Source of the DNA: Escherichia coli
Lineage (GTDB): Bacteria > Pseudomonadota > Gammaproteobacteria > Enterobacterales > Enterobacteriaceae
Length of the DNA: 64,000 nucleotides
NCBI RefSeq assembly: GCF_048403405.1
Contig: NZ_CP183129.1
Reading direction: 5' to 3' (one strand)
Shown in pieces: positions 3,984-55,115 of the stretch. Under the pieces are notes generated by a model. That model was not told the origin of the DNA, did no database searches, and worked only from the letters and a program-made list of their open reading frames with translations. Position 1 is the stretch's first letter, and the number at the start of each line of letters is the position of its first letter. Position numbers and translations under genes: made by a program.

Positions 3984-4985
3984 TCAGAATTTGACAGTAG
4001 GAACGGTTGGCCAGATTCTAGCAATAGACTTAAACATAGTCTCCACAATATATTCGAGAACCTCATCATCAGGCTCTTTCATTAATGCTTTTACTTTATT
4101 TATTCTATCCTGAAGTGAAGGGTGAGATTTTGAAAAACCCCAGTTGTTTTTACCTAACATAGTAACGCTGAATAATGCACAGTATATAGAAAGTCTTCTT
4201 TTCCTGCTCACCAACACACGGTCATACATAGACTCTTCACAGTAATTATCTATATGGTCAAGGATGAATTTATTTGCAAACTCATCACATGAGAACTCTT
4301 CATTATGAGCTTGTTCTTGTGTGAATTCATTCATATCATAACTGGTACCTTCCTGCTGATGAATGATATGTCGGACTTCATGCAAAAATGCCCAAGCAGC
4401 AGCAATAATTGCTAATTCAGCTGTTGCTCTTTTAACTGGTTCGATTTTACTGTCAGGCATGGTGCCAGGTTCAGGAATTCCTATTGGTAGTGGTTTTTCA
4501 TCCGGTACCTCATCTTTAGCCGTGTTTTCAAAAGCGCAGATTAACTGTTCAAAGTTTACGAAGTCTGCCGAACTGAAATCAGCAAGTTCTTCCTGTAGCT
4601 CCTCGAGTAAAACATGTAATTCTGACTCGGTTGAGACTAATGATATTTTCTTTGAGTCAAAAAGATCTAAAATAGAATCCCTTTTATCGATAATGTCTTC
4701 AATTTTTTTATTTTGCTCAGTGTTTATTGCTTCGTAGCCCGCCATTGCAGCAAATGTTCCTATCCAGAACGTGCGCAAAACACGATGATTGAAGCGGATA
4801 AATCGATACATCCCCGCATCAAAAATAAATTTACCGTCTGTATGATTATCGCTATGATTTTGGAAGGTCATGTTAAATTTAGACCAGAACTCATCCAGTT
4901 CATTCTGACGCTCTGGAATAGAGGCTAAAAACATTTTTCTTACGCTGTCCTGAACTGTTTTATCTTCATTATGCTCTTCAAACAT
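3984..4985 (-). CDS. Cargo protein with HExxH motif (AWAFLHEVRHIIH), possible zinc metallopeptidase-like protein; acidic N-terminal half
   Basis: ORF 3984..5045; preferred start is ATG at 4985 with GGTGAG upstream (333 aa); alternative TTG at 5045 (353 aa). Convergent with the HNH-like gene; low-GC by eye. Confidence 0.55.
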   Translation of the reverse strand: MFEEHNEDKTVQDSVRKMFLASIPERQNELDEFWSKFNMTFQNHSDNHTDGKFIFDAGMYRFIRFNHRVLRTFWIGTFAAMAGYEAINTEQNKKIEDIIDKRDSILDLFDSKKISLVSTESELHVLLEELQEELADFSSADFVNFEQLICAFENTAKDEVPDEKPLPIGIPEPGTMPDSKIEPVKRATAELAIIAAAWAFLHEVRHIIHQQEGTSYDMNEFTQEQAHNEEFSCDEFANKFILDHIDNYCEESMYDRVLVSRKRRLSIYCALFSVTMLGKNNWGFSKSHPSLQDRINKVKALMKEPDDEVLEYIVETMFKSIARIWPTVPTVKF

Positions 4986-20405: not shown

Positions 20406-21113
20406 CTATATATACTTCCTTTTTACTCTACTTAATTCTATCACTGATGAGGAGTGACAAAATGACAAATTAATAGTATCGATATAATCCAAAATTTGAC
20501 TCTCAACCTCAATAAAAATATTTTTGGGCCCATTACTAATCGATATACCGATTTCATCCAAAACAGCCATCATTTTTCTCTGATGAGTTTTATATTTATA
20601 GTCTTTATTTTCCTCTGTAATATGTGCATTGGCTTCCTCAATAACACATTTGATTCTAGATATTATTTCTAGATAATCTCTCGAAACAGATATATCACCG
20701 CCTTGCGCTTCAGGGAACATAACCCTATACCATCTAAAAAAATTAACTTTCTCTGGATAGATGCTACTTCTTTTAGTTAACTCAGCACTTGCAAATTCTC
20801 TAAACATCGTCAGATGACTAGTGTAATTACTATTATTATTATTTTTAACTCCAGCGTTATATGTCATCAAAGCAATCATAACACCAAAAACGGTAACAAA
20901 AGTTGTTATAAGCCATCCAAACGCCTGAAAATACATTACTATACCAGATGTTTTTTCCGCAAAAAATTTTAAGCACTGGCTATCGAAGCATATATCACGC
21001 TCATATAGCTTTTCATTCTGAATAGTTTCAAAAAGAGAAATTAGCGAAAAAATCAAAAAAAGAGCTGACGACACACCGACAATATATTTGAGAAGTCTAA
21101 TATTTGCATTCAT
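20406..21113 (-). CDS. Cargo protein with two N-terminal transmembrane helices, translationally coupled to the upstream reverse transcriptase; candidate effector
   Basis: ATG at 21113 overlaps RT stop (ATGA); 235 aa; hydrophobic segments IVGVSSALFLIFSLISLF and GIVMYFQAFGWLITTFVTVFGVMIALMTY; AT-rich by eye. Confidence 0.65.
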   Translation of the reverse strand: MNANIRLLKYIVGVSSALFLIFSLISLFETIQNEKLYERDICFDSQCLKFFAEKTSGIVMYFQAFGWLITTFVTVFGVMIALMTYNAGVKNNNNSNYTSHLTMFREFASAELTKRSSIYPEKVNFFRWYRVMFPEAQGGDISVSRDYLEIISRIKCVIEEANAHITEENKDYKYKTHQRKMMAVLDEIGISISNGPKNIFIEVESQILDYIDTINLSFCHSSSVIELSRVKRKYI

Positions 21114-22336
21114 AATGGTTTTAAAGATGCCAATCTAGATTTAAAACACTCCAGTTTTTCTTTAAATGATTCAGAGCGAGTAAGAATAATCATCTTATAT
21201 CTCGTCAAATCATATTTTCTTTTATACCAATGTTTATTTTGATTACCTTTCGAATACGACAACTCTAAACTTTTTATAGCTGCATCAATCACAGCAACAT
21301 CTCTTTTAGATGGCATCGGTTTTATTGCCTGCAACTGTTTCTTGAATGATTCATATTTTTCATGCCCAACACGGCCAAGCTTATTCACTCTCCCCATACA
21401 TCTATTGAATTCTTTTCTGTATGCAACACTTGTTTTTGTGTTATTTTTTGCCGCCAGTAATTTCAAATTATGTATAGATGCCCTGATTCTTTTGACTTCA
21501 TCGGATGGTAGTCGAGGTGAGTCATAGTCAACTCTTAAACCATGTACTTTTATAGGTTCAGATGAACAGTGAAATATTTTTGTTTTGTGCTTATTTATCG
21601 GCAAGTCATGCTCAGAAAGCATCCTCTCTATATGGCTTTGCATTTGAGAAAAATCATAATTACTTATTTTAGATGACACGGTAATATCATCTACCAAACG
21701 CGTATAAACAAGTCCTTTCCTCTGCGCACGTCTTACCACATCCCCTTCAACAGCGAATAAACACAAAGTTGCTATATAGCTTGATGTTAAGGCCCCCTGT
21801 ACGACAAAATCATCCTTAGTACATATATCCACCAAGTATTCAAGAGCCTCATCCTTAATATGCAATATCTCCTCAAACACGCTCCTAACCAGATCTCTAT
21901 GGATATTATCGAAAAAATTACTTATATCCACCTTGAGAACTGTTTTTGCTCCACAATGAGCCTTTGCACATGAAACATAGTCACGTTTGACATTAGAATT
22001 TAAAACATCATTTTTACTGGGAACTGAACCAAACAAAAATGAAGGAAAAACAACCAATTCCTTAAAAATACGTTTATTAATTCTACTCTGTAATAATCTC
22101 ATTTTAGGATGTAGGGAGTAGACAATCCGTTTGCTTCCGTCAATTTTGGGAATTTCTTTTAGAGTATATTTCTCATCTAATGATAATTCTGCAATAGCTT
22201 TAAGCTCTTCAACAGAAATCGATAAAGCCTTTGACAACTTTTCAAGTGTTGTGATAGGAGCATTGGATTTGCTGTATGGTTTAAATTTATCCATAAACAT
22301 ACCATTCAAATTCAAAGTTACGTACGGTCTTCCCAT
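21110..22336 (-). CDS. Reverse transcriptase (retron-like or Abi-type), defence-associated candidate
   Basis: RT motifs in the translation: IPKIDGSKRIVY (fingers), VLKVDISNFFDNI (motif A), QGALTSSYIA (motif B-like), YTRLVDDITVSS (YxDD; DNA ~21671-21706), and KVHGLRVDYD resembling the retron VTG region. Start uncertain: ATG candidates at 22336, 22300, 22294; the supplied ORF extends to a TTG at 22384. Confidence 0.8.
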   Translation of the reverse strand: MGRPYVTLNLNGMFMDKFKPYSKSNAPITTLEKLSKALSISVEELKAIAELSLDEKYTLKEIPKIDGSKRIVYSLHPKMRLLQSRINKRIFKELVVFPSFLFGSVPSKNDVLNSNVKRDYVSCAKAHCGAKTVLKVDISNFFDNIHRDLVRSVFEEILHIKDEALEYLVDICTKDDFVVQGALTSSYIATLCLFAVEGDVVRRAQRKGLVYTRLVDDITVSSKISNYDFSQMQSHIERMLSEHDLPINKHKTKIFHCSSEPIKVHGLRVDYDSPRLPSDEVKRIRASIHNLKLLAAKNNTKTSVAYRKEFNRCMGRVNKLGRVGHEKYESFKKQLQAIKPMPSKRDVAVIDAAIKSLELSYSKGNQNKHWYKRKYDLTRYKMIILTRSESFKEKLECFKSRLASLKPL

Positions 22337-22805: not shown

Positions 22806-24644
22806 TTAATCAGCCAGATAAGGTTCAACTTTATCTTCCCATACACTAAATAAAGGCAAACAAGTTAAATAAAAGATAAAGACACAGGCAAAAACTGAAG
22901 TTGGTTGATAACAATGATTTACAGTATACCTGCCATGAGCCATCGTGTGTCTAATTGCAGCACCACCTTTCATATTGAACAATAAATCCATAGTCAATAC
23001 ATGATCACTATCAAAAACACCTTCCATTTCACTCCTATAATTTGCAAGCATTTGAGATAGGCTAGTAGCCTCCTCAAAAAGCGACACATCTATTTTCGTT
23101 GTTTCTTTTCTTCTTAATTCTAAAATCCATCTAATTGAATTCTCCAATTGCGGCAATAACAAATAACAGGCAGACACATAATCTCCCTGCCAAAGCTTAT
23201 AAAACCCCAAAGAAAATATTTCTGCATACCCAGGTGGAACAAATGCACTTTGTTGTGAGATTGGGTCAAATGTATTTTCATTTAATGAATACCTAGCCAA
23301 CACACTTTGCCTAACGACTTCAAACTCACCACAAACATAGACCTGATGCTCAATGTTACTAGTTCTTAAATAATTTGCACAAGCATCATTTAAACTTATA
23401 TCCCCCGCAGGATCCAAAGGTGAACGACTTGCTACAACGCGCCCTCTATCATCATAAACAACCGTTTCACTCATATTAAGAAAAAAATGTTTTTTAGCAT
23501 CGGAACGAGCTCTTTCCATAATTTCACTGGCACTTACAATCTTAAATCTAGCAATTAAAGTTTTAATTACCCTTGAGAAATCCAATTGATTATAAACATG
23601 CTCTTTCTGAGCGATAACATCACTAAGATCCATTGGTATTGCAAAGAAGTGCATTTCATCATTGATTTGATCTCGAATAGAATTCAATTCCTCTCTAATC
23701 TTTTTAATTTCTTCATTCATTCCACCAATTGCTCTAAATTCGCCAAGAGCAACTCTTAACCAATGAGCCTTCAATATTGAAGATGAAGACTGTTCAAATT
23801 GAGCCAATGTTATTTCTGACGCTTTAATTCTGCACCGTCTTCCTTGCTCTTCCATATCGTTTTTAACATATAATTCAGACGCAAAATAAAACAATTTTTT
23901 CACTGCATCAAAATAAGACGCTCCACAATGCTCATCAGCTATCTTTTCTGCATTCTCAGCCAATTGCAAGGGACACAATAAATTATTCTTATAAAGAATT
24001 TCAGAAACTCTTAATACACCGGTGAATATACCAGAGTCTATTAATACATGATATAACCTTAATGTCGAATCAACTATCCCCCCTTGTAGTTGTTTTTTCC
24101 TGCCAATAAGCATGCGCGATATTGCGATACCTCTATCCAAGCAGTCAACAACATCAAAAATATGGATATCACCTGACTCTTGTTTTTCTATTAAAGTATC
24201 GCAAGCATCATTAACCATTAGAGAATATGACTCTATTGCTTTATTGGCAGAGTCTATATCCTTACGGTTATTTATCCATAAAACATCACACACCCTAGAT
24301 ATAATATAAGGATTATCGGAGTTTTCTTTAATACAAGTTAATATTGTTGAAAAACTCTCCTTATAATCTGAAGGCCTATAGCCCCTCTCAGGATAGAGAA
24401 TGATTTTTGGCTCAAAACCGATAATATCACCAGACCTAGAAAATTTAAAATTAAACAACGCACGTAATAAATAGCAAAGCCGCCAAGAACTTACATCGTT
24501 TTTTAGCTTGTAAGATGACAACAACTGAACAAAATAAGACTCCATATCAAAATGAGAATAACTTCTTGGCGATGATAATATACTGGCGTATTCACTTTTT
24601 TTAAAATCATCAACTGAAATAGAAAAAACATCAAACTCGCTCAT
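22806..24644 (-). CDS. Cargo protein of unknown function (612 aa) with C-terminal HEPN-like R-x4-H motif (AIRHTMAHGRY); candidate abortive-infection RNase
   Basis: ATG at 24644 with GGTGAGGA upstream; no P-loop seen; AT-rich by eye; occupies the P2 tin/old position between A and cos. The HEPN call rests on one short motif. Confidence 0.6.
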   Translation of the reverse strand: MSEFDVFSISVDDFKKSEYASILSSPRSYSHFDMESYFVQLLSSYKLKNDVSSWRLCYLLRALFNFKFSRSGDIIGFEPKIILYPERGYRPSDYKESFSTILTCIKENSDNPYIISRVCDVLWINNRKDIDSANKAIESYSLMVNDACDTLIEKQESGDIHIFDVVDCLDRGIAISRMLIGRKKQLQGGIVDSTLRLYHVLIDSGIFTGVLRVSEILYKNNLLCPLQLAENAEKIADEHCGASYFDAVKKLFYFASELYVKNDMEEQGRRCRIKASEITLAQFEQSSSSILKAHWLRVALGEFRAIGGMNEEIKKIREELNSIRDQINDEMHFFAIPMDLSDVIAQKEHVYNQLDFSRVIKTLIARFKIVSASEIMERARSDAKKHFFLNMSETVVYDDRGRVVASRSPLDPAGDISLNDACANYLRTSNIEHQVYVCGEFEVVRQSVLARYSLNENTFDPISQQSAFVPPGYAEIFSLGFYKLWQGDYVSACYLLLPQLENSIRWILELRRKETTKIDVSLFEEATSLSQMLANYRSEMEGVFDSDHVLTMDLLFNMKGGAAIRHTMAHGRYTVNHCYQPTSVFACVFIFYLTCLPLFSVWEDKVEPYLAD

Positions 24645-29702: not shown

Positions 29703-30698
29703 ATGTCTATTAAAAAGCTCGATGATGGTCGTTATGAAGTGGACGTCAGACCGCAGGGTGCAGATGGAAAACGTATCAGGCGGAAATTTAAAACTAAAGG
29801 TGAAGCTCAAGCATTCGAACGTCATGTGCTGGTTAACTACCACAACAAAGAGTGGCTGGAGAAGCCAGCCGACCGCCGAACTCTTACAGAGTTGTTAGGC
29901 AGATGGTGGATATATCACGGAAAATCACATGAGCGTGGAAATATTGAACGGGGGCGTTTGACGACAATAATCGCCAAATTTGCAGAAATGGGGGTGTCCA
30001 GAGCTGACCAGTTAACAAAGAAAACGATAACTGATTATCGAGTTGTAATGATGAACGATGGTCTAAAACCAGCCAGCGTAAATCGGCATCTGGCAATAAT
30101 GAGCGGGATGTTCACCAAGTTAATTGACGCCGGTGAATACCACTCTCACAACCCGTTCCGTGAGGTTAAGCGGTTACGTGAAGCTGTTACAGAAATGGCT
30201 TTTTTGTCCAGTGAAGAGATTACGCGGCTGTTATCCATGCTTGATGGTGATGAGTTAAATGCAACTCTGGTCTGCCTTTCTACTGGTGGACGCTGGAGTG
30301 AAGTGTCTAATTTGAAAGCTGAACACATCATTAACCAGATGGTTACGTTTATGAAAACTAAAAACGGAAAGCGCAGGACAATTCCCGTTTCGCAGGACCT
30401 GATTAAAAGGATCAAGACCAAAAATTCAGGCAGGCTTTTTAATGCCAGTTACTACAAAGTGCGTAACGCTCTCAGGGAAGTAAAACCCGATTTACCTGAC
30501 GGACAAGCAGTACATGTTTTGAGGCATACATTTGCCACACATTTTATAATGAATGGAGGTAACATAATCACATTGCAGCGCATCCTGGGTCATTCTAACA
30601 TTCAGCAAACTATGACCTACGCACACTTTGCACCGGATTTCTTACAAGATGCTGTGACTCTTAACCCGGTGTCAGGAATGTCCATAATGCGTCCATAA
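29703..30698 (+). CDS. int: Tyrosine integrase (P2 Int family)
   Basis: 331 aa; MSIKKLDDGRYEVDVRP..., HxxR and C-terminal catalytic region (LRHTFATHF...GHSNIQQTMTYAHF); last prophage gene before the host junction. Confidence 0.9.
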   Translation: MSIKKLDDGRYEVDVRPQGADGKRIRRKFKTKGEAQAFERHVLVNYHNKEWLEKPADRRTLTELLGRWWIYHGKSHERGNIERGRLTTIIAKFAEMGVSRADQLTKKTITDYRVVMMNDGLKPASVNRHLAIMSGMFTKLIDAGEYHSHNPFREVKRLREAVTEMAFLSSEEITRLLSMLDGDELNATLVCLSTGGRWSEVSNLKAEHIINQMVTFMKTKNGKRRTIPVSQDLIKRIKTKNSGRLFNASYYKVRNALREVKPDLPDGQAVHVLRHTFATHFIMNGGNIITLQRILGHSNIQQTMTYAHFAPDFLQDAVTLNPVSGMSIMRP

Positions 30699-43184: not shown

Positions 43185-46100
43185 TTAGTCAAACGGCGGT
43201 GGGGCCAGCACTTCACGATTACCGTTGTGCCCCTGTTCGCTGACAATCCCCTGCGCTTCCATCTGTTCGATAATACGCGCTGCACGGTTATAACCAATGC
43301 GGAACTGACGCTGTACGCCAGAAATTGATGCTTTGCGTTTTTCAGTGACAAACTGCACCGCCTGATCGAACAACGGATCCAGCTCTTCAGCGCCATCGAA
43401 ACCGCCCGCGCCACCTTCGCTTTCGCTGTCGGAGGTGATGCCATCAACATACTGTGGGCGACCACGCGCTTTCCAGTCCTGCACCACGGCATGAACTTCC
43501 TGATCGCGAACAAAAGCACCATGAACACGTACCGGCAACGTGGAGTTCGGCCCAGAGTAAAGCATATCCCCCATACCCAGTAGTGATTCCGCGCCAGCCT
43601 GATCAAGAATGGTACGTGAGTCAATCTTACTGGATACGGTAAAGGCGATACGGGTCGGAATATTCGCTTTAATCAGACCAGTAATAACATCAACCGATGG
43701 ACGCTGCGTTGCCAGTACGAGGTGGATACCCGCGGCACGGGCTTTTTGCGCCAGACGTGCTATCAGCTCTTCCACTTTTTTACCTACCGTCATCATCAGG
43801 TCGGCAAATTCGTCCACCAACACCACAATGTACGGTTCTTTTTTCAGCACCGGATGCTGGGCATCCATACTGTCACCCGGCTTCCAGTACGGGTCTGGAA
43901 TCGGACGCATCATCCTATCGGCTTCAGCAATTTTTTCGTTATAACCCGCCAGATTACGCACACCCAGCGCAGACATCAGTTTATAACGACGCTCCATCTC
44001 GTTAACACACCAGCGCAGCGCGTTGGCGGCATCTTTCATATCAGTAACGACTTCCGTTAACAGATGCGGGATGCCTTCATAAACCGAAAGCTCCAGCATT
44101 TTCGGGTCGATCATGATGAAACGCACATCTTCTGGCTGTGCTTTATAAAGCATGCTCAGGATCATCGCGTTCACACCGACAGACTTACCGGAACCGGTAG
44201 TCCCCGCAACCAACAAGTGCGGCATTTTCGCCAGATCGGCAACCACCGGCTCACCGGCGATATCTTTACCCAGCACCACGGTTAATGGCGACGGATTATC
44301 GCGGAATTTGGCGTTATCCAAAACTTCGCGCAGATATACGGTTTGTCGTTTTTTATTCGGTAACTCCAGACCTACATAGGGTTTGCCAGGAATAACTTCA
44401 ACGACACGCACCGCCACCGTCGAAAGTGAACGGGCAAGGTCCCGTGACAAGTTAGAAATGCGCGCCGCTTTTACGCCAGGAGCCAGGTTAAGTTCAAAGC
44501 GAGTGATAACTGGCCCCGGAGAGTAATTGACGACATCGGCTTTAATACGGAAATCAGCCAGACGCGCTTCCACCAGACGCGCCATTTGTTCAAGCGCAAA
44601 GGTATCTACCGGCTCCACTTCGCTCGGCGGAGGTGTCAACAAATCCAAAGAAGGCAGCGGCGTCGTCGGTTTATGCAACGGACGGCTGTCGCCATTACGC
44701 ATCAACAGCGGATGAAGCAGGGTATCCTGCGGCTGTGGCGCAACTGGCTGTTGCGGCTGCGGCGCAACCGGCTGTTGCGGCTGCTGATACTGCGGCTGCT
44801 GTGCAACCGGCTGTTGTGGCTGCTGATATTGCTGCTGCGGTGCAACCGGCTGTTGCGGCTGCTGATACTGCGGCTGCGGCGCAACTGGTTGCTGCGGCTG
44901 CTGATAATGTTGCTGCGGTGCAATCGGTTGTTGCGGCTGCTGTACAGGTTCAACAATTGGCGTAAACAACGGTTCGTGTGGACCATCATCCAGCAACGCT
45001 TTCATTGGCGAAAATTCAAAATCATCCAGCGAGAACGGATTCGCCCCAGCCGGTTGTTCGCCGGAATAACGTTGTTGTTGAGTTTGCGCAAACTGACGAG
45101 CCAGTTCAGCCTCTGCCGCAGCATCTGCATCTTCTGCGTTTACGGGCACATCATGTTGATACTGTTCGCCATAGCGTTGCTGCTGTGTCTGGGCGAACTG
45201 ACGTGCCAGTTCATCCTGCTGCATCGCATCGATTTCATCATCGTTGTACTGATCGCCAGAATCGTACTGATTGCGCTGGGCTTCACGGGCTTTTTCTTCC
45301 GCCGCACGCTGTGAGGGCAGCTTAATACCGTAAGACGCCAATTCACGACGAGTTGGCACGCGGATACGTTTCGGTCGTGGCAACTGCGGGCCAATCCCCT
45401 CTTTGACCTGCGGACGCGGTCCACCGCTATTTGCCAGACTGAAGACTGGCGCGGCAACGGTTGCGGCAGCCCCCGTCGCCAGTGTCGCTTTTTTCACGCC
45501 AGATGCCAGCGGAGAAACAGCGGCAGCGGCTTCTACTGGAGGTACTGCTGCAACAGAAGGTGCTTTCAGCGAAGATTTGATCGGTTCTGGTTCTTTAACC
45601 GGTTCTGGAATCGGTTGATACCAGGCCGCAAGTTGTTCACGTTCACGGGCTCGCTTCTCTTCCACTTCTTCAAAGTAGTAAAGCGGCGGACGCGCGGGTT
45701 TTGTCTCTTCTACAACGGGTTCAGGCTCCACAACAGGCTGCTGTTCAACGGGTTGCGGCTGTTGGTACAACGGCTCCTGAGCGGCTGGCTGCTGATAAGT
45801 TTGCTCAGTCTGGTATGTAGACTGTGGAGCAAAAGTGGATTGCTGCTCTTCGGCTTGCCAGGCGTTACCTGCCACCGATTGTTCTGGCGCAGGGGCGTAA
45901 TACGGCTGTTGCGCAGACTGTTCCGGCGCAGGGGCGTAATACGACTGTTGCGCAGACTGTTCCGGCGCAGTTGCGTAATGCGGTTGCTGAACAGGTTGTT
46001 CAGCTGCAGGCGCATAATACGGCTGCTGTGGCTGTACAGGTTGTTGCAGCGGCTCATTATATTGCACTGCAGGCTGCGCATATTGTGGCTGCTGTGGGTA

Positions 46101-47237
46101 ACCTTCCGGTGCAGGAGCAATAACCGGCTCTCCCGTTTGTGGCCCCGGTACAGGCTGCCAGGCTACTGTAGGTTGTGCAGGTGGAACATCAACAGAGGCA
46201 ACAGGCGGCGTCTGAGTCACAGGTTCAACCGGCGCAGCCCAGCTTTGTGTCGCCGTGGTAGCAGCAGCTGCTACAGCAACAGGTTCGGTAATTGGCGCAC
46301 CGTTTAATAATGGATCGTATTCGTCATATTCTGGCTGCGTTGCACGATTGCCCGAAAAGAGGACGTCGTCCGGGTCGGCAGCCACACCGCGTGCAGTGTA
46401 GGTAATCTCTTCTTCATCATCCATCCGCTTACCGGAGAACAACGCAGCATCTGTTTGCCGCCCCATCGGATTAATGAATTTTTCCGCCAACCGTTTACGA
46501 CGCGCTAGCGCGCCGCGAAGAATACGGGCACGGCGTGATTCATGCTGTTTGCCGTGATTTTCATCTTCGTATTCTTCGTCGTCTTCATACTCATCTTCAT
46601 CGACCCAGGTATCATCGCGACGGGTACGATTACTGGCGAAGGTGAGAATATTTAAAATCCAGCCGCCGAGTTTTTCAGCAATGGTCACCCATGACCAACC
46701 GGTGAACAGCGTCAGGCCCGCTGCCCAAACGCAGAGCAGCGCAATAGTTCCCCCGCTACTGTGTAGCAGTGGTTGTAGCGTAGTGCTTAGTAAGCTGCCA
46801 ATGACGCCACCGGAGGCAAAATACCAGATATCGTCAGCGTTGATTGCCGCCAGACCACAGGAGGTAAGGATGAGCGCCAAAACGCCAATGATGCGTAGCG
46901 AAACGGCAAAATAATCAATGTATTCGTCGCTGGACTGATGACGCCAGGCAAACCAACAACCGCCGACAATAATGACGGGAATGGTGTAAGCCATCACGCC
47001 AAAAATAAAGAACAGCGTATCTGCCAGCCACGCACCGGGCATCCCACCTAAATTATGGATAGGTTCATGCCAGGCCGTTTGCGACCAGCTGGGGTCCGAA
47101 GGGTTAAAGCTTAGTAAGGCAGCCATCAACCAGACGGCAAACAGGACAATAAGGATCAGCAACGCCTCCAGAAGGCGGCGGCCGCTACTTAACTTTGTCA
47201 ATGTGACTTCTTTGTCTTCAGTGTATTCCTGGCTCAA
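43185..47237 (-). CDS. ftsK: DNA translocase FtsK
   Basis: 1350 aa; N-terminal membrane domain, PQ-rich linker, C-terminal motor (GTTGSGKS). Confidence 0.95.
44730..44950. repeat. In-frame tandem nucleotide repeats encoding the PQ-rich FtsK linker
   Basis: Repeated CGGCTGTTGCGGCTGCTGATACTGCGGCTGC-type units; they generate many spurious ORFs in other frames and on the opposite strand. Confidence 0.8.
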
Positions 47238-54489: not shown

Positions 54490-54577
54490 GGTGAGGTGTC
54501 CGAGTGGCTGAAGGAGCACGCCTGGAAAGTGTGTATACGGCAACGTATCGGGGGTTCGAATCCCCCCCTCACCGCCA
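54490..54577 (+). tRNA. serW: tRNA-Ser (anticodon GGA), long variable arm
   Basis: GGTGAGGTGTCCGAGTGGCTGAAGGAGCACGCCTGGAAAGTGTGTATACGGCAACGTATCGGGGGTTCGAATCCCCCCCTCACCGCCA; T-loop GGTTCGAATCC; position between infA and clpA. Confidence 0.85.
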
Positions 54578-55115
54578 TATTTAAAGAAAAGCTCGTACGA
54601 AAGTGCGAGCTTTTTTTTTCGCATATTGCACTCCAGGGGGGATGAGAAGCCCCGACCGGGGTTCGACAACTGGCGCAGCCAGTTGGACAGACCACGAACA
54701 CAGTGAGTGGGCTGCCCGCAGGGCGAGCGAAGCGAGTCAATCCCCCCCTCACCGCCATATTCAAAGAAGAGCTCGTACGAAAGTGCGAGCTTTTTTTTCG
54801 CATATTGCACTCCAGGGGGGATGAGAAGCCCCGACCGGGGTTCGACAACTGGCGCAGCCAGTTGGACAGACCACGAACACAGTGAGTGGGCTGCCCGCAG
54901 GGCGAGCGAAGCGAGTCTATCCCCCCCTCACCGCCATATTTAAAGAAAAGCTCGTACGAAAGTGCGAGCTTTTTTTTCGCATATTGCACTCCAGGGGGGA
55001 TGAGAAGCCCCGACCGGGGTTCGACAACTGGCGCAGCCAGTTGGACAGACCACGAACGCAGTGAGTGGGCTGCCCGCAGGGCGAGCGAAGCGAGTCTATC
55101 CCCCCCTCACCGCCA
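54578..55115 (+). repeat. Three tandem direct repeats of ~179 bp (54578-54757, 54758-54936, 54937-55115) plus a degenerating fourth start; each unit has the terminator hairpin and ends with a copy of the tRNA-Ser 3-prime end (AATCCCCCCCTCACCGCCA)
   Basis: Near-identical units read directly from the sequence; occasional single-base differences between copies. Confidence 0.85.
54590..54620 (+). terminator. Terminator hairpin immediately after serW (first of four near-identical copies)
   Basis: AGCTCGTAC-GAAA-GTGCGAGCT followed by a T-run of 8-9. Confidence 0.7.

Follow-up and report, generated by a model that had tools for sequence, protein, structure and literature searches.

A 39-nt coding repeat array in the linker of Escherichia coli FtsK and the source of its length difference from K-12

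The linker of FtsK is a flexible tether between a membrane-anchored, divisome-binding N-terminal domain and a hexameric DNA-translocase motor. In the 64,000-nt stretch of Escherichia coli DNA analysed in this work (the window), a sequence-only reading had drawn attention to a PQ-rich tandem repeat at 44730-44950, which it described as expanded and with which it linked the 1350-aa length of the encoded protein, as against about 1329 aa for K-12 FtsK. The question raised by this locus is what kind of element the array is and whether it is indeed the array that makes this FtsK longer than that of K-12.

Identity of the gene and anatomy of the flagged array

The gene and the array flagged within it occupy the following positions.

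43185-47237, minus strand: ftsK coding sequence, 4053 nt, 1350 aa, TTG start (ORF list and translation)
44727-44942, minus strand: array B, the PQ array, aa 766-837; 39-nt (13-aa) unit, four full units and a 20-aa terminal piece

Four Pfam families matched the 1350-aa ORF far above their cut-offs and in the order 4TM, alpha, motor, gamma: FtsK_4TM (PF13491, residues 20-191), FtsK_alpha (PF17854, 861-961), the P-loop motor FtsK_SpoIIIE (PF01580, 969-1182) and the KOPS-reading FtsK_gamma (PF09397, 1285-1345). The TTG start and the 40 nt upstream of the gene are identical to those of K-12 b0890, with a GGAG located 8 nt upstream. The window corresponds, with 3 mismatches, to positions 3320740-3384739 of E. 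coli MS 69-1 (NZ_CP146675.1), so that the RefSeq annotation of that genome can be transferred to it one-to-one. In the annotation of this near-identical region an ftsK CDS is found at the same coordinates, within the gene order lrp-ftsK-lolA-rarA-serS, of which the lrp-ftsK-lolA segment agrees with the order in K-12. Both the Pfam domains and the RefSeq annotation bear out the earlier naming of the gene: the ORF at 43185-47237 is an FtsK/SpoIIIE DNA translocase, the orthologue of E. coli FtsK.

The alignment with PDB 2IUS, a crystallised construct of the E. coli motor, covers residues 839-1350. Since array B ends at Q837, two residues short of the start of this alignment, it constitutes the last piece of the FtsK linker, in agreement with the location first ascribed to it. 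In the PDB comparison, array B was covered by no solved structure.

Tandem repetition within array B was called by TRF at 44752-44942 (period 39, 4.9 copies, 86% matches, score 284), with a second call of a 24-nt sub-period at 44728-44784. As a null for repetition in the arrays described here, self-identity by lag was measured in 2000 codon-shuffled versions of the same stretch. The lag-39 self-identity of array B was 0.81, while the shuffles averaged 0.58 and went no higher than 0.69 (0 of 2000 reached 0.81); because the observed value exceeds every shuffle, array B is truly repetitive and not merely rich in P and Q, which together make up 76% of its residues. The tandem repeat noticed from the letters alone is thus real and its motif literally present; the unit of 33-36 nt that had been given for it has to be corrected to 39 nt (13 aa), as indicated by both TRF and the lag-39 identity. 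Array B contains six QPQQPVAP cores, the same number as in K-12, and lacks one 15-nt Tyr-containing spacer relative to K-12. We are highly confident that it is the C-terminal PQ-rich array of the FtsK linker, a minisatellite of 39-nt units that lies within coding sequence.

A review characterises the FtsK linker as an unstructured, PQ-rich segment whose length varies from species to species and which helps to make contacts with the divisome and to position the motor (PMC5357621); apart from this review, our search of the literature on linker length and disorder yielded nothing that deals specifically with the E. coli PQ array. Together with the residue composition given above, the review suggests that array B is an intrinsically disordered PQ-rich linker, predicted to act as a flexible tether.

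Length variation relative to K-12 and across E. coli

The K-12 reference used for comparison was NC_000913.3, in which ftsK (b0890) is 3990 nt long and encodes 1329 aa. Both of the protein lengths on which the sequence-only reading relied were therefore right, and the net difference is +21 aa. The whole-protein alignment contains only two indels, one of -5 aa in array B and one of +26 aa in a further repeat.

45876-46031, minus strand: array A (the YYAPAPEQ array, ms06), aa 403-454; 39-nt (13-aa) unit, 4 units here and 2 in K-12

Around array B, the distance between the anchors PIVEPV and DTLLHP is 78 aa here and 83 aa in K-12, that is, 5 aa or 15 nt shorter. The 26 aa gained in array A, with the alignment gap at columns 416-441, amount to two additional 39-nt units. 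TRF called array A at 45880-46025 (period 39, 3.7 copies, as against 1.9 copies in K-12), and its lag-39 identity of 0.79 was reached by 0 of 2000 codon shuffles. Array A lies about 1 kb from the flagged array B, upstream within the gene.

The whole 21-aa excess over K-12 is repeat-number variation, and its source is array A and not the flagged array B. The original explanation of the length difference thus holds insofar as repeats account for all 21 aa, and fails as to which repeats these are. The alignment with K-12 ftsK that the sequence-only reading had suggested as a check does reveal a gene length different from the reference, but the flagged interval itself differs in the opposite sign, being shorter rather than expanded. 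When FtsK orthologues differ in length, an alignment is needed before the difference is ascribed to the repeat that is most prominent; here, the prominent array had changed in the opposite direction.

As CVN001 and ms07, the flagged ftsK array has served as a typing marker for close to twenty years. The published primers delimit the following in-silico amplicons in the window.

44635-45057, minus strand: CVN001 amplicon, 423 bp here and 438 bp in K-12 (primers from PMC11773471)
44631-45202, minus strand: ms07 amplicon, 572 bp here and 587 bp in K-12 (primers from PMC4644529)
45760-46138, minus strand: ms06 amplicon, 379 bp (4 units) here and 301 bp (2 units) in K-12

The CVN001 primers were located at 45037-45057 (minus strand, exact) and 44635-44656 (plus strand, 2 mismatches), those for ms07 at 45183-45202 and 44631-44650 (3 mismatches under the reverse primer), and those for ms06, both exact, at 46119-46138 and 45760-45779. 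One study lists ms07 (equivalent to CVN001) and ms06 with 39-bp units, with offsets of 353 bp for ms07 and 223 bp for ms06 (PMC4644529), and another gives primers for 'CNV001 (ftsK)' (PMC11773471); for CVN001, one of the scheme's most variable loci, alleles of 4-8 repeats have been reported in clinical E. coli (PMC5217547). Array B, which lies within both published primer pairs, has a 39-bp unit and is polymorphic in copy number, is the VNTR locus CVN001/ms07; array A, which lies between published primers and is likewise polymorphic with a 39-bp unit, is the VNTR locus ms06. Both ftsK arrays were thus already known as published typing loci. Expressed in units, the ms07 allele of the window is (572-353)/39 = 5.6, which falls off the ladder.

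An ftsK match was found in 5,425 of 5,426 complete E. coli genomes; the population figures given below come from rank-spaced samples of about 60 of these genomes and not from the whole census. Among 59 full-length matches in such a sample of the 5,426, ftsK ranged from 3951 to 4224 nt (1316-1407 aa), all lengths being divisible by 3, with modes at 3990, 4068 and 4107 nt (1329, 1355 and 1368 aa) and a median of 4068 nt, and the 4053 nt found here are mid-range and near this median. We decomposed 16 alleles, 14 of them fetched across the observed lengths in addition to those of K-12 and the window. Outside both arrays FtsK was 1210 aa long in 16 of 16, and all length variation among them was confined to array A (36, 49 or 62 aa) and array B (52 to 135 aa). 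Of 60 sampled genomes, 20 had an ms06 amplicon of 379 bp (4 units), 20 one of 340 bp (3 units) and 19 one of 301 bp (2 units). For ms07, 47 genomes were resolved, the sizing having left out 12 sampled genomes in which the BLAST match was split at array B as well as CRE10, in which the ftsK match was interrupted; the amplicon was 587 bp in 21 of them, 626 bp in 15, 602 bp in five, 665 bp in two, and 509, 572, 704 and 782 bp in one each. These sizes extend from 509 to 782 bp in 39-bp steps, from which the 572-bp allele and the 602-bp class deviate by 15 nt, and of the 46 other genomes that were resolved in the sample, 45 have a larger amplicon than the 572 bp of the window. In these rank-spaced samples the array A state of the window is common and its CVN001 state is rare. 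The array lengths are ordinary strain variation in E. coli, which is how the length of the protein had initially been judged.

A clonal off-ladder allele and the origin of the 15-nt loss

An ftsK gene and amplicon identical to those of the window were found in only six complete genomes, namely TUM14771, GN02461, 4621, MS 69-1, TUM1226 and OX030728. These six also come closest to the window when 16.7 kb of flanking DNA is compared: their identities are 99.9-100%, that of the next genome is 99.4%, and the allele therefore marks one clone. The nearest other alleles are those of the pig isolates HCP5S3_I2, LCP30S3_I5 and ETEC1738, which have in common with the window an Ile in unit 1 and the deletion junction described below, and which are one or two units shorter, with arrays of 52 and 65 aa compared with 78 aa here. 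Within the allele family that has this junction, array B of the window is the longest.

The junction was assigned by a unit-by-unit DNA comparison with K-12, ETEC1738 and HCP5S3_I2, the latter two sharing it, and coincides with a short direct repeat.

44752-44759, minus strand: CAGCCGCA, the 8-nt direct repeat on which the junction of the 15-nt deletion (equivalent to QQYQQ) lies

It reads GCGCCG-CAGCCGCA-ACAGCCAGTT. In intact QPQY units, copies of CAGCCGCA occur 15 nt apart (CAGCCGCAGTATCAG|CAGCCGCAACAG; array offsets 66/81 and 144/159), and the copy at the junction together with the next copies produces the 24-nt sub-period that TRF called at 44728-44784. Upstream of the junction stands CCGGTTGCGCCG, the signature of internal units, and downstream of it CCAGTTGCGCCA, that of the terminal unit. 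A misalignment between CAGCCGCA copies 15 nt apart would delete exactly 15 nt while keeping both CCGGTTGCGCCG and CCAGTTGCGCCA, and the loss of 15 nt at CAGCCGCA fits replication slippage, a mechanism suggested by the arrangement of these copies. It is because of this sub-unit deletion that array B falls off the ladder. More generally, unit number drifts between E. coli lineages, always in frame, probably through replication slippage or unequal exchange between units, and slippage at shorter internal direct repeats would give rise to steps of 15 and 24 nt. Short 15-nt 'QQPQY' units are present in other strains and yield the 602-bp class, which includes a Nissle 1917 record, and whole-unit changes of 39 nt predominate elsewhere.

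Other accounts of the size of array B were weighed against this one. That the flagged array is expanded relative to K-12 and is itself the source of the difference between 1350 and 1329 aa would be in keeping with an ORF 21 aa longer than that of K-12, with the variability of the repeat and with the position of the 78-aa array above its closest same-junction relatives; given that the alignment places a 5-aa gap on the window side in array B and the 26-aa insertion in array A, and that both amplicons are smaller than in K-12 (423 against 438 bp for CVN001, 572 against 587 bp for ms07), we consider it highly improbable. The missing 15 nt could instead be an assembly or sequencing artefact, as repeats tend to collapse in short-read assemblies and the allele is off the 39-nt ladder. 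Yet the same 4053-nt gene and 423-bp amplicon are found in six complete genomes from different laboratories that belong to one clone by their flanks, the reading frame is preserved, three further genomes have this junction in combination with other unit counts, and a typical read is longer than the 216 nt of array B. The agreement of independent assemblies on an in-frame structure argues against an artefact, which must be regarded as extremely unlikely. An array of equal length would also result from the loss of one unit together with a 24-nt duplication on a five-core array, but this requires two extra substitutions, whereas a single deletion retains the internal and terminal signatures without any, and the duplication is accordingly the less parsimonious of the two. 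On parsimony we favour a single 15-nt deletion, in an allele that is shared by a clone.

Coding capacity, length tolerance and relation to known typing loci

Array B is crossed by other reading frames, as had been noticed when the window was first read.

44586-45314, plus strand: spurious antisense ORF of 242 aa running through array B (ORF list; absent from the RefSeq annotation)
44633-44965, plus strand: spurious ORF crossing array B (ORF list)
44702-44989, minus strand: spurious out-of-frame ORF crossing array B (ORF list)

The repeats had been held to explain a dense cluster of such ORFs. It is correct that three ORFs cross array B and that the array is free of stop codons in 5 of 6 frames, since codons of the CAG, CCG and CAA type give no stops; the density, by contrast, is within the norm of the window, with 20 ORFs of at least 60 aa over ftsK as against a window mean of 17.7 +/- 5.2 per 4 kb, and an unusual density over the gene was discarded on this count. 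A tandem repeat within a gene, overlapped by ORFs of 242, 110 and 95 aa on the other strand or in another frame, might be taken for a contingency (phase-variation) locus or for the cover of a real antisense or overlapping gene. However, units of 39, 24 and 15 nt are unable to shift the frame: the reading frame is intact in every one of the 16 decomposed alleles, and their lengths, like the 59 gene lengths of the sample, are without exception multiples of 3, so that no repeat change that shifts the frame was seen among them. The shadow ORFs, for their part, are of low complexity and rich in L, R and C, and none of the six (three per array) had a Pfam match or appeared in the RefSeq annotation. 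The probability that we assign to either a contingency locus or a hidden gene is close to nil.

If the length of the linker arrays were under selection, alleles would be adaptive and could tune FtsK, for example by setting how far the motor reaches from the septum or when division takes place relative to dimer resolution. The linker does matter for contacts with the divisome, and dimer resolution is fully active only with it (PMC5357621). All observed indels preserve the frame, the repeat is kept across Escherichia and Salmonella, and allele sizes gather at a few modes. Frame preservation is nevertheless expected wherever the C-terminal domain is useful, and modes can mirror clonal population structure; moreover, a more than 2.5-fold range of length is tolerated in array B, the present data contain no link of length to habitat or pathotype, and a 28-aa ftsK repeat indel swapped between S. 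Enteritidis strains had no effect in the single assay tried (PMC6137255). Selection on array length therefore appears unlikely to us. A more specific form of this idea, in which 15-nt indels define stable CVN001 allele lineages and reflect selection on the exact spacing or Tyr content of the linker segment adjoining the motor, linker length subtly tuning the coupling of septation to chromosome clearing, is in our estimation very unlikely; the '-15' class was found only in this human-associated clone and the three pig isolates, and the '+15' class includes Nissle 1917-type alleles. That lengths of 52-135 aa are tolerated while the remainder of the protein keeps a fixed length rather points to array B being a passive flexible spacer under weak length constraint, a reading drawn from allele lengths, and the constant 1210-aa remainder illustrates how weak the constraint on this part of the linker would be. 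From the same tolerance and the one Salmonella assay, performed in one condition, we infer that changes in array length are near-neutral.

The locus carries little biological weight, being a textbook coding minisatellite in a well-studied protein whose arrays are established typing markers. Of more practical concern is that typing by fragment size (MLVA) could bin the CVN001 allele of this clone ambiguously, as 5 or 6, because the allele is off-ladder and the sites under the reverse primers carry mismatches.

The closest counterpart of the protein is K-12 FtsK (b0890) with its linker FtsKL, which has 99% protein identity, the same domain order and a PQ array that immediately precedes the alpha domain and the 2IUS construct; in the FtsK of the window the PQ array is 5 aa shorter, the YYAPAPEQ array is 26 aa longer, and a few residues are substituted. 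At the level of typing systems, CVN001 of the Lindstedt generic E. coli MLVA and ms07 of the Gorge Shigella/E. coli MLVA are the same locus as array B, located inside ftsK with a 39-bp unit and a variable copy number. Compared with their usual ladder, the allele described here has 5.6 units and lies off the 39-bp steps, and in this lineage 2-3 mismatches are present at the sites of the reverse primers. The ms06 locus of the Gorge MLVA has the same 39-bp unit as array A, and the 4 units of this strain are one of its three common states; it is distinct from the flagged array, and the greater length of this FtsK relative to that of K-12 is due to it. In Salmonella enterica, the homologous 39-bp ftsK repeat is the typing locus SENTR2/STTR7 (PMC2430564), which resembles array B in its homologous linker position, its unit and its use in typing, and which shows whole-unit indels between isolates (PMC2430564, PMC6137255), but which belongs to another genus and has more copies (9.3 in S. 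Enteritidis).

Sub-unit variation in array B and its typing assays

Array B, the PQ-rich 39-nt tandem array in the ftsK linker that is typed as CVN001 or ms07, carries extra 15-nt 'QQPQY' short units in other E. coli genomes. One extra short unit each is present in 729_yolk and AREA_C483, and two in RIVM_C036204. A 602-bp ms07 class accounts for 5 of the 47 genomes sampled for amplicon size, with one Nissle 1917 record among its members. Given the short units elsewhere and the frequency of this class, sub-unit variation is therefore common at this VNTR.

The reverse primer sites of the two published assays lie within window 44631-44656, and in the lineage of the window the CVN001-R site has two mismatches and the ms07-R site three. 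Together with the off-ladder amplicon, these mismatches could affect fragment-based MLVA calls at CVN001/ms07.

ftsK across complete E. coli genomes

The search of E. coli genomes returned an ftsK match in all but one of 5,426, as well as eight plasmid-borne ftsK-like matches. In CRE10 (NZ_CP034404.1) the match is split in two pieces, the best of which covers only 59%, a pattern which suggests that the gene is interrupted in that strain.

Flanking features and comparison with MS 69-1

Two annotated features are adjacent:
54490-54577, tRNA-Ser
54621-54757, RtT sRNA, directly after tRNA-Ser
The annotation note of the latter reads 'processed from tyrT transcript'; its neighbour in the window is a serine tRNA.

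A P2-like prophage is integrated next to pflA (window 1-30698), with its integrase at 29703-30698. Its annotation is that of the near-identical record of strain MS 69-1, and it carries likely anti-phage cargo:
2354-3460, plus, DUF2634 protein
3984-4985, minus, Lit-family phage exclusion protein
20406-21113, minus, effector membrane protein of retron Ec48-family reverse transcriptase
21110-22294, minus, retron Ec48-family reverse transcriptase
22806-24644, minus, DUF7380 protein

The MS 69-1 RefSeq chromosome differs from the window at only three positions across 64 kb (4273, 14854 and 29021), all of them within the prophage.
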